Assembly (NCBI GenBank): GCA_964642155.1
Contig: CAZXNT010000004.1
Location: 2,040 to 66,039 of the forward strand
Length of the DNA: 64,000 bases
Reading direction: 5' to 3'
Source: an uncultured Candidatus Saccharibacteria bacterium
GTDB taxonomy: Bacteria; Patescibacteriota; Minisyncoccia; UBA6257; UBA9933
Shown: positions 2,397 to 7,626 of the stretch, one piece after another
How the letters are laid out: each line of letters starts with the position of its first letter
How positions within the stretch are numbered: position 1 is the stretch's first letter
The notes under the pieces: model-generated
Seen by the model: the letters and a program-made list of their open reading frames with translations, nothing else
Databases searched by the model: none
Told to the model about the DNA's origin: nothing
Made by a program: the position numbers and the translations under genes

Positions 2397-3565
2397 GAAT
2401 TTTATTCACCGGCGGCGGAACCGGCGGACATATTTATCCGATTTTAGCGGTTGTTGAAGAACTGCAAGCCTTTGCCGCGAAAAGAAACATATATATTGAT
2501 TTGCAATATCTCGGCGCTCCCGGAAATTTTCGCAAACTTTTTGTTTCCAACGGCGTTTCGGTTTCAAAAATATTATCCGCCAAATTACGGCGTTATTTTG
2601 ATTTGCGTAATTTTTTGGATTTTATTCTTTTCCCCATAAGTATTATTCAGGCGTTTTGGAAAGTTTTTTGGATTATGCCGGATGTTTTATTTTCCAAAGG
2701 CGGTCCGGGTTCGTTACCGGTTGTTATTGCCTGCAAATTTTATCAAATTCCCGTGATTGTCCATGATTCTGATTCAACAATCGGTTTAGCTAATAAATTA
2801 GCATTGTCTTTCGCGAGCCGTATTGCCGTTTCTTTTATTTCAACTGCCGAGGAAATTGTCGGAATGCAAAAAAACGCAAAAAAAGCCGAATCTTTTCGCG
2901 CCAAAATAGCGTTTGTCGGCAATCCAATCAGGCCTTCTCTTTTTAAAGGTGATATTATAGACAAACAGATGGCTAAAAAAATGCTTGGTTTTGAGTCGGA
3001 AAAACCCTTGATGCTGATTTTGGGCGGTTCGCAAGGTTCATCTACTATAAACGATTTTATGTTGAATATCGCCGGAGAATTGGTGAAAGATTGGCAAATT
3101 TTTCATCAAACCGGCATTGATAATTTTAACAGCGTTAAAAGTGAACTGGCGGTTGTCTTGAAAGGATTCGGCGAAGAGGAAAAATCACGATATAAAATTA
3201 TTCCTTATTTTGAAAATAATTTAAAAGACGCTTATTCGGCCGCTGATGTGGTAATTTCACGCGCTGGCAGTCTTTCAATTTTTGAAATCGCCACTTTCGG
3301 AAAGCCGTCAATTCTTATCCCTTTAAGCGAGAAAGTTGTGGGGGTTCATCAAATTAGAAACGCTTATGAATATGCGAAAACCGGAGCCGCCGTTGTTATT
3401 GAAGAAGAAAATCTTAAACCCCATATTTTTATGAGTCAATTAAGTAAAATTATCGGCGATGTTGATTTATTGAAAAAAATGTTTGAAGCCGCCCGCGGTT
3501 TTTCAAAACCCGACGCCGCTTCAAAAATCGCTGAAGAAATAATTCGTTTAAGCAATATGGTATAA
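2393..3565 (+). CDS. murG: UDP-N-acetylglucosamine--N-acetylmuramyl-(pentapeptide) pyrophosphoryl-undecaprenol N-acetylglucosamine transferase
   Basis: N-terminal FTGGGTGGHIYPILAV glycine-rich MurG signature; 390 aa; directly follows ftsW. Confidence 0.85.
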   Translation: MRILFTGGGTGGHIYPILAVVEELQAFAAKRNIYIDLQYLGAPGNFRKLFVSNGVSVSKILSAKLRRYFDLRNFLDFILFPISIIQAFWKVFWIMPDVLFSKGGPGSLPVVIACKFYQIPVIVHDSDSTIGLANKLALSFASRIAVSFISTAEEIVGMQKNAKKAESFRAKIAFVGNPIRPSLFKGDIIDKQMAKKMLGFESEKPLMLILGGSQGSSTINDFMLNIAGELVKDWQIFHQTGIDNFNSVKSELAVVLKGFGEEEKSRYKIIPYFENNLKDAYSAADVVISRAGSLSIFEIATFGKPSILIPLSEKVVGVHQIRNAYEYAKTGAAVVIEEENLKPHIFMSQLSKIIGDVDLLKKMFEAARGFSKPDAASKIAEEIIRLSNMV

Positions 3566-3572
3566 TTTAAAA

Positions 3573-4052
3573 ATGAACCCCGTTAGAAGTCTTAAAAAAT
3601 ATTTTTTACAAAAGGAGCCAAAGACGAAAGTCGGCTTCGCCTTTAAGATATTCAATAAAGATAATCAAGTATGGACTTCTAACGGGGTGAATTCATTGAT
3701 TTATCAAAAAAAACAAAAAGGACAAGCGATGCTTTTAGCGGTTCTATTGATTGGCACCAGTGTCTTAGTTATTACTTCTTTATCCGGTTATATGATGTTG
3801 CAAAGAATTAGAATGGGTTTTAATTTTGTTGATTCAACAAGGGCTATTTTTGCGGCTGACGCCGGAGTGGAATGCGAATTTTATAATTCTTTTAAGGGAG
3901 CGAGCGTGGATTGCGATGGTTTGGATTTTTCGGACCCATTAACAAAAGTTCAAACTATTATTGTGGCTGATGACAATGGCGTTCCGCAGTATATAAAATC
4001 AATCGGCACTTCTAATAAATCCAACCGCGCTTTCGTGGCGGAGTTTAAGTAA
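3573..4052 (+). CDS. Hypothetical membrane-anchored protein
   Basis: 159 aa ORF with one predicted TM helix (LLAVLLIGTSVLVITSL); no recognisable family. Confidence 0.35.
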   Translation: MNPVRSLKKYFLQKEPKTKVGFAFKIFNKDNQVWTSNGVNSLIYQKKQKGQAMLLAVLLIGTSVLVITSLSGYMMLQRIRMGFNFVDSTRAIFAADAGVECEFYNSFKGASVDCDGLDFSDPLTKVQTIIVADDNGVPQYIKSIGTSNKSNRAFVAEFK

Positions 4053-4105
4053 TTTTTTTAATTTTTTCTTGATTTTTATAAATAACACGAGTATATTGTT
4101 ATCGC

Positions 4106-4291
4106 GGGGTAGAAGAGTTGTGTCTCACAGTGTCTTTTAGACTCATAATTTTATTTCTATTCTTCGCCGAGATTTTCTGAAAATTTGGAGCATCTCGGCG
4201 GGGTAGAGGAACGGTACCTCGCAGTGTCTTATAGACTCATAATCCCCATTTCTGTTCTTCGCTGAAATTTTCTAAGTTGTTGGAGTATTTC
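4106..4291 (+). repeat. Two tandem degenerate copies (about 93-bp period) of the 5' half of tRNA-fMet, upstream of the intact gene
   Basis: gcggggtagaagag... (4106) and gcggggtagaggaacggtacctcg... (4199) repeat the acceptor/D-arm of the tRNA at 4292, each followed by the ctcataat(cccca) anticodon-loop remnant and diverged filler. Confidence 0.6.
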
Positions 4292-4362
4292 AGCGGGGTA
4301 GAGGAACGGTACCTCGGGGGGCTCATAATCCCCAGGAGCGGGTTCAATTCCCGCCCCCGCAA
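4292..4362 (+). tRNA. tRNA-fMet (CAT), initiator-type
   Basis: Manual cloverleaf: A1xA72 mismatch, D-stem GAGG/CCTC, anticodon loop CTCATAA, G-C rich anticodon stem, T-loop TTCAATT, 3' CCCCGCAAC as in E. coli tRNA-fMet. Confidence 0.75.
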
Positions 4363-4378
4363 CATTTTTAAAATTTTC

Positions 4379-4450
4379 GTCGGCGTAGCTCAGTGGTAGA
4401 GCGAAGGACTCATAAACCTTAGGTCGCAGGTCCGATTCCTGCCGCCGACA
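4379..4450 (+). tRNA. tRNA-Met or tRNA-Ile2 (CAT anticodon, elongator type)
   Basis: Manual fold: acceptor GTCGGCG/CGCCGAC, D-arm GCTC..GAGC, anticodon loop CTCATAA, T-arm GCAGG-TCCGATT-CCTGC. Confidence 0.7.
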
Positions 4451-4459
4451 CTGAAATTA

Positions 4460-4876
4460 ATGCGTAAACATTCCAAAAAATTTATAATTTTTTTATTAAT
4501 AATCATTACGATTGCCGGTTTTTTTTATATTTATTCGGCAATAAAAATGGAAAAAACCTATGCTTTTTTTAAGCCGTTAGAAGTATTGGGAACATTTGAA
4601 AACTTGCCGGTAGTAAAAGCGGCAACGGAATATGGTAAAAAAAGCGTTGACAAAATCGGAGAAAAAATAAAAAATCAAACAAGTGTGATTAATAATTCAG
4701 TTTCCAAAGCAACGGATAATTTTAAAAATAGCGCGTTTGAATTTGCCAAAGAAAACATAAATAGCGGTCTTAACGCCATGGGCAATGTTTTGGGAGTTGA
4801 TGAGAAATTGATTACTACAACCATTATCAGTACAAGTACAGTAAATACAATTAGCAATAAAGAGAATTGTAAATAA
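4460..4876 (+). CDS. Hypothetical N-terminally membrane-anchored protein
   Basis: 138 aa; N-terminal TM helix then polar domain; no family recognised. Confidence 0.35.
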   Translation: MRKHSKKFIIFLLIIITIAGFFYIYSAIKMEKTYAFFKPLEVLGTFENLPVVKAATEYGKKSVDKIGEKIKNQTSVINNSVSKATDNFKNSAFEFAKENINSGLNAMGNVLGVDEKLITTTIISTSTVNTISNKENCK

Positions 4877-4885
4877 TAAATAAAA

Positions 4886-5461
4886 ATGTCTCTGACTTAC
4901 AACGAATTAAAACCCGGAACTTTTATTATTTTTGAAGGACAGCCCTATGAAGTGCTGGAATTTGCGTTTTTGAGAATGCAACAGAGAAAACCGGTAAGCA
5001 AAACGAAATTGAAAAATTTGATAACCGGAAAAGTGAAAGAGCAAACCTTTCATCAAAGCGACATTTTGGAAGAAGCGGAACTTGAAAAGATGCCCTCGCG
5101 TTTTCTTTATGAAAGCAGGGGAGCTTATTGGTTTGACGAAGTCGGCAATCCAAAAAATCGTTTTTCTTTTGATAAAGAAACTTTTGGGGATTCGGTTGAT
5201 TTTTTAAAGCCGAATTTGGAAACAACAGCCGTGAAATTTGAAGGGAAAATCATCAATATAGAATTGCCGATTAAAGTCGCTTATAAGGTTGTGGAAGCTC
5301 CGCCGGCGATTAAAGGAGATACGGCGCAAGGCGGAAACAAGGCCGTGATTATTGAAACCGGCGCGAAAGTAAACACTCCGTTATTTATCAATAGCGGAGA
5401 CGTTGTTTTAGTGAATACTCAAACTGGCGAATATGTAGAGCGCGTTGAAAAAGGATTATAA
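4886..5461 (+). CDS. efp: Translation elongation factor P
   Basis: 191 aa; N-terminal NELKPGTFIIFEGQPYEVLEF and KPG loop typical of EF-P. Confidence 0.85.
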   Translation: MSLTYNELKPGTFIIFEGQPYEVLEFAFLRMQQRKPVSKTKLKNLITGKVKEQTFHQSDILEEAELEKMPSRFLYESRGAYWFDEVGNPKNRFSFDKETFGDSVDFLKPNLETTAVKFEGKIINIELPIKVAYKVVEAPPAIKGDTAQGGNKAVIIETGAKVNTPLFINSGDVVLVNTQTGEYVERVEKGL

Positions 5462-5860
5462 GGCGCAACCGCTTTCCTGTGAAAGTTTTTCAAGTGTTTG
5501 TTCTCCTTCAAATTTTTTGCCCTCAGGGGCTTGCCCTGAGTTTGTCGAAGGGAAAATCCAAGTCGGGTATCCTTCCACTCCTTTATCAATGCATAATTTA
5601 GTATTTTCCGGACATTCAATATAAGGAACATATTGAAATGAATTTCCGAAAAGTTTTTTCTGATTTTGACAATGGACGCACCATTCGGCGCCGTACATCG
5701 TGATATTTTTTTCCGCCAAACATTTGGCGAAATTGTCATATTGGCTTAGCGCGTTATTTTGCGACTTGTCTTTTTTAATCTGTAAAAAAACCAACACCGC
5801 AACAGCGATTATGGCAATAATACCAATACTAATAATAATTTTTGCGCTTTTGTTTAACAT
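5456..5860 (-). CDS. Thioredoxin-fold thiol:disulfide oxidoreductase, membrane-anchored (CxxC)
   Basis: 134 aa; N-terminal TM helix; WCVHC active-site motif; adjacent to CcdA-like gene. Confidence 0.55.
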   Translation of the reverse strand: MLNKSAKIIISIGIIAIIAVAVLVFLQIKKDKSQNNALSQYDNFAKCLAEKNITMYGAEWCVHCQNQKKLFGNSFQYVPYIECPENTKLCIDKGVEGYPTWIFPSTNSGQAPEGKKFEGEQTLEKLSQESGCAL

Positions 5861-5911
5861 ATTATTTTACAAAATAATTGAAGTCAGATTTGTTTTGAAG
5901 AACATCCCGCA

Positions 5912-5960
5912 GCCCCGACGGGCTTGGTCTGACCCCGCAAAGCGGGGGAAGCCGTCGGGG
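5912..5960. terminator. Nested GC-rich hairpin (probable intrinsic terminator downstream of the minus-strand gene 6035..6547)
   Basis: ccccgacgg...ccgtcgggg outer stem enclosing the recurrent ccccgcaaagcggggg hairpin. Confidence 0.45.
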
Positions 5961-7365: not shown

Positions 7366-7538
7366 AAGGAAAGGCGAGAGTTCGACCTGCCCCGTAATGT
7401 CCGCCAGAAGCGGACTATTTCGGGGTTCTCGCTTGGTCCAAAAGGTAGGGTGGGTGAGCGGTTTAAACCGCTGGTCTTGTTCCCGATTTGTATAAAATTT
7501 GTTAGAATTTTATCTACAAATCGCAATCCCGCTTAAAG
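7366..7538. other. Structured, relatively GC-rich spacer between tRNA-Ala and tRNA-Ser (nested hairpins; possible small RNA)
   Basis: gcgagag...ccccg-taatg-tccgc-cagaa-gcgga-ctattt-cgggg...ctctcgc nested stems; gagcggtttaaaccgctg hairpin; overlapping ORFs 7239..7526(-)/7243..7536(+) judged spurious. Confidence 0.3.
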
Positions 7539-7626
7539 CGGAAGGTTGGCAGAGCGGTCTAATGCGCCGCACTTGAAATGCGGTTGAGGAGAAATCCTCT
7601 CGGAGGTTCGAATCCTCCACCTTCCG
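7539..7626 (+). tRNA. tRNA-Ser (TGA)
   Basis: Manual fold: acceptor GGAAGGT/ACCTTCC, 3-bp D-stem, anticodon stem CCGCA/TGCGG loop CTTGAAA, long variable arm, T-arm GGAGG-TTCGAAT-CCTCC. Confidence 0.8.

Follow-up and report, generated by a model that had tools for sequence, protein, structure and literature searches.

A tandem array of partial tRNA-fMet copies with a covariation-supported leader hairpin in Wolfebacteria-like Patescibacteria

The tRNA-fMet locus and its pseudo-units

The DNA analysed here, a 64,000-nt stretch called the window below, carries on its + strand, at positions 4103-4362, two pseudo-units of 94-95 nt followed by an intact initiator-type tRNA gene with CAU anticodon (4292-4362). 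The tRNA was recognized by ARAGORN (4292-4363) and by Rfam (RF00005, 55.5 bits), and in the Rfam alignment it displays the traits of a bacterial initiator: besides the CAU anticodon there is an A1xA72 mismatch, i.e. a non-Watson-Crick 1:72 combination, the purine11:pyrimidine24 pair A11:U24 and a G-rich anticodon stem. The stem is GGGGG/UCCCC, with G:C pairs between G28-30 and C40-42 and a G.U pair at 31:39. A second tRNA with CAU anticodon (4379-4450, + strand; ARAGORN, Rfam 70.1 bits) lies 16 nt downstream and is probably part of the same transcript. The 3' CCA is encoded by neither gene (4360-4364 ...GCAACA; 4448-4452 ...GACACT), so CCA addition is needed. The array and the tRNAs are located between two ORFs (3573-4052 and 4460-4876) that code for small proteins with a hydrophobic N-terminal segment and have no Pfam match; in the search made, homologues were found in related Patescibacteria only, with 57-92% identity among the relatives, i.e. 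fast divergence.

The tandem character of the region was apparent in several searches. The motif GCGGGG marks the start of a unit at 4104, 4198 and 4293 (spacing 94 and 95 nt), Tandem Repeats Finder reported a period of 95 with 2.0 copies, 84% matches and a score of 272, and the repeat search detected direct repeats of 69 nt and 46 nt with 83-84% identity, spaced 94-95 nt. Positions 4198-4221 and 4293-4316 are identical over 24 nt, which could not be produced by chance in 64 kb, and the 'ctcataat' motif is present in all three units (4142-4149, 4236-4243 and 4322-4329). These searches bear out the initial annotation in its description of decaying 5' copies upstream of the initiator tRNA; the array starts 2-3 nt earlier than it had proposed, and the spacing is 94/95 nt rather than about 93. 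It was also right in regarding only the third unit as complete, as ARAGORN and Rfam called just 4292-4362 among the three units. Since units 1 and 2 gave no ARAGORN match and no Rfam tRNA match even at E<=10, they are pseudogene fragments, and the locus has the make-up of a tandem pseudogene array, with partial copies arranged head-to-tail directly 5' of the functional gene.

Each pseudo-unit begins with tRNA positions 1-26, followed by a 14-nt insert, by the anticodon loop together with the 3' strand of its stem and by a segment of approximately 45 nt, called X in the following; the tRNA-derived part represents the 5' two-thirds of tRNA-fMet, and the T arm and the 3' acceptor strand are absent. 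The insert, CAGTGTCTT(A/T)TAGA, contains a small palindrome (GTCT...AGAC) and stands in for the GGGGG 5' strand of the anticodon stem, and the loop with the 3' stem strand reads CTCATAAT(CCCCA). In pseudo-unit 1 (4103-4196, + strand, delimited by repeat analyses) position 1 (N1) is C4103 and the acceptor and D-arm part (4104-4127) is decayed, with GAAGAGTTGTGTCTCA where the D arm should be; then come the insert CAGTGTCTTTTAGA (4128-4141), the anticodon-loop remnant CTCATAAT (4142-4149) and the leader segment X1 (4150-4196). Pseudo-unit 2 (4197-4291, + strand; repeat analyses and insert pattern search) is intact in its first 24 nt: N1 is G4197, and 4198-4221 match tRNA positions 2-25 exactly. 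It continues with the insert CAGTGTCTTATAGA, which replaces GGGGG (4222-4235), with CTCATAATCCCCA (4236-4248) and with the leader segment X2 (4249-4291). The divergence between the two pseudo-units is 16%.

Outside the array, pattern searches of the 64 kb found no copy of X or of the insert, and pattern and covariance-model searches placed the copies at the tRNA-fMet leader only, which is not the distribution of a dispersed (REP- or MITE-like) repeat. Derivation of X from the promoter or from the tRNA 3' part plus trailer was evaluated by aligning seven X variants with six promoter regions and four tRNA 3' parts; measured against dinucleotide shuffles, all were non-significant. Duplication of the promoter plus the 5' half, or of the whole tRNA plus spacer followed by loss of the T arm, was not supported by the alignments either, and some likenesses of X noticed by eye (GAGTAT; ttcttcgc versus cccccgc; aaattttc) failed the alignment test.

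Copy number and promoter among relatives

Relatives of the locus were collected by three routes. A scan of a genome collection with the tRNA 5' half gave eight CPR loci, a metagenome scan with the X-tRNA junction pattern gave two true loci and one false positive (L009, a chance match within a coding region), and additional contigs came from following homologues of both flanking ORFs. Three homologues of the upstream ORF (P0012, P0013 and P0007) stand in other genomic contexts, without the tRNA. The relatives are Wolfebacteria-like Patescibacteria (the name is that given by the source for P0003), and their FtsW/MurG DNA identity to the window is 76-91%.

The initial annotation had raised the question whether the number of copies differs between strains, and among these relatives it does. 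There is no pseudo-unit in L002/L012-L020 and L032, where the promoter-like site described below directly adjoins the intact tRNA; a truncated one, which has lost the 5' part and retained the insert/loop remnant and X, is found in L023-L025 and L027; there is one in L011, one and a half in L036, two in the window, L022 and L045, and at least two in L021, L026, L044, L046 and L005. In the last five the array runs into a contig end or an N gap (start of L005 and of L046, end of L021, L026 1760-1860, L044 2690-2790), so their unit counts are minimum values. Differences were seen even between L012 and L021, which have zero and at least two pseudo-units and differ in 3 of 2928 upstream bases, an identity of 99.9% in the flank. 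Array-less alleles (L012 group, L032) evidently survive, thus the leader is dispensable. As a practical matter, assemblies made from short reads break at the array, and it could lead tRNA annotation astray.

Type A X segments were found as X1 of the window, as X2 of L022 and in L023, type B as X2 of the window, as X1 of L022 and in L011 and L021; the two types follow each other in opposite order in the window and in L022. The two X types are old. In L036 the lineage-specific G9 occurs in the tRNA and in the pseudo-unit alike, a sign of concerted evolution or of a recent duplication, and the two X copies of this locus are identical. Copy-number polymorphism among close relatives and exchange between units, as known from plastid trnF arrays, were both found here. 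Taken together, the copy number, the X order and G9 of L036 are what results where short direct repeats undergo unequal homologous recombination and gene conversion. An exchange between the tRNA and the first pseudo-unit, within their shared 5' parts, would yield the exact promoter-tRNA junction of the array-less alleles. The initial idea that the units are scars of repeated recombination holds in the form of unequal homologous exchange, with copy number ranging from 0 to at least 2 and the X order swapped; there is no integrase, and no element lies between the copies.

The surroundings of the tRNAs also vary. In L022 (3290-3990) a block consisting of the promoter, two pseudo-units, tRNA-fMet and the second CAU tRNA has the opposite orientation to the genes around it, being inverted as a whole. 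Between its two tRNAs there is an 81-aa GIY-YIG ORF (Pfam 3.3e-16; PHROG 'homing endonuclease'); perfect hairpins flank this ORF, as does another copy of the tRNA 3' end, 'cccgcaac'. In L012 (2975-3830; also in L013-L020) a 231-aa ORF replaces the 16-nt spacer and is followed by a different tRNA with CAU anticodon. This ORF was dropped as a candidate homing endonuclease: it was LAGLIDADG-like by eye only, and the searches gave a weak N-terminal HTH (Pfam), families of unknown function (PHROGs) and nothing (PDB).

A further variable feature is position 1 of the initiator tRNA, which is A, G, C or U among the relatives. N1, standing opposite A72, tracks its upstream neighbour: it is A after a type B X, G after a type A X and C or U after the promoter (in the window, compare 4292, 4197 and 4103). 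The U1 of L032 would pair with A72 in Watson-Crick fashion, which is unusual for a bacterial initiator. As the locus shows, recombination among close relatives can exchange this base of the mature initiator tRNA.

Between the end of the small upstream ORF (4052) and the array there is a promoter-like site on the + strand (4069-4097), consisting of TTGATT (4069-4074), a 17 nt spacer and TATATT (4092-4097), with 9/12 consensus matches. Its end lies 5 nt ahead of position 1 of pseudo-unit 1, and there is no other such site on the + strand from the upstream ORF to the tRNAs; the same hexamers and spacing are conserved in L002, L010, L011, L022, L023, L027, L032 and L036. Consensus and conservation suggest that this is an active promoter. 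No promoter-like or sigma-70-like site was found in the interior of the array, and there is no sign of an intrinsic terminator or attenuator: the hairpins described below are followed by GGGGUAGAGG, and 4053-4460 contain no terminator-like site. Since the units lie between a single promoter and the tRNA, with no internal promoter or terminator, they should be transcribed as a 5' leader, and we infer that the array is co-transcribed as the leader of a tRNA-fMet/tRNA-Met precursor. Of the three readings offered initially, that of processed leader elements comes closest: the location between promoter and tRNA agrees with it, and transcription as a leader would follow from this location. Where the array is missing (L012 2876-2905; L032, minus strand, around 4396-4430), tRNA position 1 follows the end of the -10 hexamer at a distance of 5-6 nt, and judging from this spacing the initiator tRNA may be transcribed there without a 5' leader.

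The leader hairpin and its covariation

One key feature had escaped the initial annotation, namely the pairing of the inter-unit segment with the next 5' acceptor strand. Inverted repeats link each X to the start of the next unit, and folding of the + strand RNA gives two long hairpins. In each of them X forms 18 bp, with a 3' arm that combines the 5 final leader bases and positions 1-7 of whatever follows, the next unit or the real tRNA. Hairpin 1 (4162-4203, + strand) has the type A arms CGCCGAGAT and ATCTCGGCG and comprises 18 pairs by RNAalifold; its 3' arm takes in N1 and GCGGGG of pseudo-unit 2, and it matched the covariance model at 4154-4211 with 81.6 bits, being itself a training sequence of that model. 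Hairpin 2 (4257-4298, + strand) has the type B arms CGCTGAAAT and ATTTCAGCG and was detected by RNAalifold, as an inverted repeat and by its folding z-score (z = -4.5). The 3' arm of this hairpin consists of leader -5..-1 and positions 1-7 of the functional tRNA-fMet, weaker pairing may reach approximately tRNA position 19, and the covariance-model match extends over 4249-4306 (80.6 bits). Two compensatory changes distinguish the two hairpins of the window, CGCCGAGAT/ATCTCGGCG versus CGCTGAAAT/ATTTCAGCG.

For a comparative analysis 12 distinct X-junction sequences from at least seven related Wolfebacteria-like CPR lineages were aligned. The RNAalifold consensus consists of a 12-bp lower stem and a 6-bp upper stem, and the 3' arm of the lower stem starts with leader -5..-1 and continues into the tRNA or pseudo-tRNA with N1 and G2-G7. 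Pairing was possible in 96.3% of the 216 cells, compared to 40-58% when the partners were slid. Seven of the 18 pairs have changed on both sides (17 cells); these compensatory changes stem from a few X types (A, B, B' and C) and represent perhaps 7-8 independent events. The covariation score was reached by none of 500 shuffles, a statistic that is inflated by the sequences being related and partly paralogous, and a second alignment agreed. A third arm variant (CGCCAAAAT/ATTTTGGCG) was found in L027 and a G.U intermediate in L023. In the pair table G.U cells are far more frequent than A.C cells (44 versus 4), a ratio that would reverse on the opposite strand, which favours the + (sense) strand RNA as the structured molecule. 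Two U.G pairs are invariant in 12/12 copies. The covarying pairs include those of leader -5..-1 and N1, i.e. there is a conserved helix over the proximal leader (-1 to about -6). An outer helix between the leader UUCU and tRNA positions 11-14 is compatible with 98% of the cells and displays no variation.

The hairpin is also present in L023 and L027, in which the repeated 5' part is deleted. This persistence shows that the retained piece is the hairpin and not the half-gene. Its occurrence is restricted: covariance model R1 detected no further copy in the window or in 17 loci, the motif being found at tRNA-fMet leaders only, and no motif in more distant CPR loci with the same tRNA 5' half. Among the 10 tRNAs of the window, tRNA-fMet is the only one with a leader folding onto the acceptor strand (z = -4.5). 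Another strong hairpin, AT-rich (gatttgtataaaattt...aaattttatctacaaatc, 7485-7522), is located directly upstream of the tRNA-Ser at 7540 (z = -4.4 with the tRNA start), and it does not engage the tRNA-Ser acceptor strand as X does. An Rfam search of 3600-4900 gave no family besides tRNA at E<=10 except noise, and no riboswitch or aptamer match; over the whole window, only tRNAs exceeded the gathering thresholds. At the level of sequence comparison, these results show a conserved, strand-specific hairpin at the tRNA-fMet leader, and they point to its being constrained as RNA.

The two competing folds were compared by nearest-neighbour calculations, a method that takes no account of tertiary contacts or modifications of the tRNA; leaders of 60 nt were used except where another length is given. 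In the window, L011, L022, L023, L036 and L045 the predicted advantage of the sequestered fold over the cloverleaf is 2-9 kcal/mol. For L027 the difference was -0.1 kcal/mol with the 60-nt leader and approximately 6 kcal/mol with a 70-nt leader. For L012 and L032, which have no array, the calculation gives the cloverleaf as the fold of minimum energy. If the acceptor stem is enforced, the predicted residual 12-bp hairpin ends at N1, leaving no single-stranded leader. When the whole leader is folded, the structure of lowest predicted energy has unit 1 pairing, by its 5' strand, with the 3' strand of the real tRNA; as L023 and L027 do not have that 5' part, this fold is kept as a prediction only.

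Interpretation and known systems

The explanation that we consider probable, though far from secure, is that a recombination-prone array is co-transcribed as a structured 5' leader whose hairpin would sequester the acceptor strand and thereby slow or gate maturation by RNase P, or guide folding. Identical 5' parts of 24-45 nt would allow unequal homologous recombination and gene conversion, by which units are added, deleted, truncated and reshuffled. The pseudo-copies would be largely by-products of this recombination that multiply the hairpin, and X would be the element selected at the RNA level. By pairing with the final 5 bases of the leader and with tRNA positions 1-7 (weakly to about 14-19), X would form a hairpin of at least 18 bp sequestering the whole 5' acceptor strand; in the cloverleaf state the residual 12-bp hairpin would abut -1/N1 with no single-stranded leader. 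When a hairpin masked the proximal part of the 5' leader, E. coli RNase P was blocked in vitro and in vivo (Ender et al. 2021, PMC7897497), which led us to propose that X delays or gates 5' maturation. Such an 'anti-acceptor' leader could set the supply of mature initiator tRNA. Alternatively, the leader might steer the co-transcriptional folding of a tRNA that is unusually rich in interchangeable G and C runs.

A stronger version, rather unlikely in our estimation, is that the hairpin acts as a natural cis-acting 'anti-acceptor' switch. With tRNA positions 1-7 (up to about 14) and the proximal leader bound in a helix, the tRNA-fMet precursor would then stay RNase P-resistant and non-cloverleaf until a trigger (temperature, a helicase or other protein, or upstream cleavage) intervenes, and the number of units, quickly altered by recombination, would tune the throttle between strains. 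If such a switch exists, it would be a post-transcriptional throttle on translation initiation in bacteria with minimal genomes.

The main rival, possible though on balance improbable, is neutral decay: a partial tRNA duplication arose once, slippage or unequal crossing-over amplifies and loses the copies, nothing is selected, and the hairpin is kept by descent and by DNA-level quasipalindrome correction or gene conversion. The instability of the copy number, with array-less alleles in near-identical strains, and the visible decay of unit 1 in the window would be expected from such a process, and plastid trnF pseudogene arrays behave alike, without known function (PMC3786074). The covariation has few independent X types behind it, and template-switch ('quasipalindrome') correction on DNA could also yield matched changes in the arms. 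However, such correction would turn the two invariant U.G pairs into C.G, and the excess of G.U over A.C suggests a constraint on the RNA. The hairpin, moreover, has been retained with compensatory and G.U-intermediate changes at 76-91% identity of the flanking genes, and it is retained in L023 and L027, where the direct repeats that would drive turnover are gone.

Scars of site-specific integration are a very unlikely origin. An integrase-type element targeting the 5' part or anticodon region of tRNA-fMet would have brought a replacement 5' half, the pseudo-units would be displaced attL-like copies, and the bodies of the elements would have been lost later. The pseudo-copies do end just past the anticodon stem-loop, which is reportedly a classical integrase crossover sublocation; X is unrelated to the local sequence, and N1 of the functional tRNA (A/G) differs from that of the promoter-proximal copy (C). 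Yet only the 45-nt X is found between copies across some 10 lineages, the synteny FtsW-MurG-small ORF-array-tRNA-ORF-EF-P is unbroken, with no integrase gene, and scans of viral contigs for the tRNA 5' half and for the pseudo-unit junction gave no match. It is the 5' part that is duplicated, opposite to the known rule, and multiple identical units per genome would still need local duplication.

Very little probability, too, is assigned to the hairpin being a structure or target at the DNA level, i.e. a recombination or nuclease site, for example for homing-endonuclease-like genes in the tRNA-fMet/tRNA-Met spacer, with the array resulting from repeated break repair. The GIY-YIG ORF of L022 with its flanking hairpins and the duplicated tRNA 3' end beside tRNA-fMet, the inversion of that tRNA block, and the 231-aa ORF replacing the spacer in the array-less L012 group would fit this idea, but the association is inconsistent, L022 having both the GIY-YIG ORF and an array and the window an array without such an ORF. 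Also against it, the G.U bias indicates one strand only, and the covariance model did not find the hairpin elsewhere.

Still less credible is the promoter-duplication array of the initial annotation, in which each unit brings its own promoter and boosts transcription of the tRNA. Unit 1 does adjoin a promoter, and X ends with GAGTAT..., vaguely resembling GAGTATATT of that promoter; but the single conserved site lies before unit 1, local alignments between X and the promoter region were not significant (z -1.8 to 2.2 in 42 comparisons), and there is no sigma-70-like site within the array. Read from the sequence, the -10-like remnant is without the conserved final T and has no -35 at proper spacing, and it is not conserved in L010 or L027. 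Finally, although relatives' short-read assemblies break or carry N gaps at the array (L005, L021, L026, L044, L046), assembly error by repeat expansion or collapse, against which the initial annotation had cautioned, has practically no chance of explaining it: an independent Logan contig (L043, SRR13723394, 2402 bp) matches window 3523-5924 without a difference, the units, with 16% divergence, cannot be mistaken for each other, and the architecture is gap-free in L011, L022, L036 and L045, with homologous arrays in several diverged relatives. The array and its polymorphism are real and reproducible, and their known distribution is a narrow clade. Whatever its function, the locus clearly exemplifies, in a bacterium, a tandem tRNA-pseudogene array that evolves fast.

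For tRNA fragments in prokaryotes, the origins put forward are integration of mobile elements and CRISPR spacers (PMC9897764), and the tRNA-fMet array fits neither. Partial tRNA genes remain after integration of mobile elements at att sites (Reiter 1989 and Williams 2002, as cited in PMC9897764). As summarized there, such fragments share with the present units the position beside an intact gene and a copy boundary near the anticodon stem-loop; they are normally the 3' part, carried by the element, with element and integrase between fragment and gene, whereas here the 5' part is repeated in tandem at 95 nt, with no element or integrase in between and no viral-contig match. CPR genomes encode a (diverged) RNase P RNA (PMC8172020). 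The array-less alleles recall the leaderless tRNA transcription of Nanoarchaeum equitans (Randau 2008, as cited in PMC8172020): in L012 and L032, with the -10 hexamer ending 5-6 nt before position 1, the start may be at or next to the mature 5' end. Unlike in N. equitans as described in that account, the leaderless state is deduced here from spacing only, and the downstream co-transcribed tRNA would still need 5' processing.

The closest structural analogue is the plastid trnF(GAA) pseudogene arrays of Brassicaceae and Solanaceae, in which one to seven partial copies precede the functional gene and the copy number is clade- or species-specific (PMC3786074). In both cases tandem partial copies containing D and anticodon domains stand immediately 5' of the functional gene, copy number differs between close relatives, and the origin is attributed to recombination between repeats. 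In contrast to the plastid arrays, the present one is on a bacterial (CPR) chromosome and involves the initiator tRNA; its copies keep the 5' acceptor strand, which most plastid copies do not have, its units carry the covariation-supported hairpin pairing with the next acceptor strand, and it lies downstream of the promoter, which would make it part of the precursor.

For the proposed gating of RNase P by the leader, the closest functional analogue would be the engineered sequestor hairpin of the synthetic RNase P riboswitch (PMC7897497). Both hairpins hold the bases immediately 5' of the tRNA and offer no single-stranded leader. Unlike the synthetic sequestor, the X hairpin is natural and without a known aptamer or ligand, and it enters the mature tRNA (positions 1-7 or more), so it is predicted to compete with formation of the acceptor stem. 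Searches of open-access text gave no account of a natural leader pairing with the 5' acceptor strand of an initiator tRNA, nor of such arrays in CPR. Should 5' maturation indeed be gated by the hairpin, the engineered 'RNase P riboswitch' principle would have its first counterpart in nature, and the target of the hairpin would be the one tRNA limiting translation initiation, in CPR, whose regulation is almost unknown. On present evidence from sequence, the locus is best filed as a bacterial variant of the tandem tRNA-pseudogene arrays, with a previously undescribed, covariation-supported leader hairpin.
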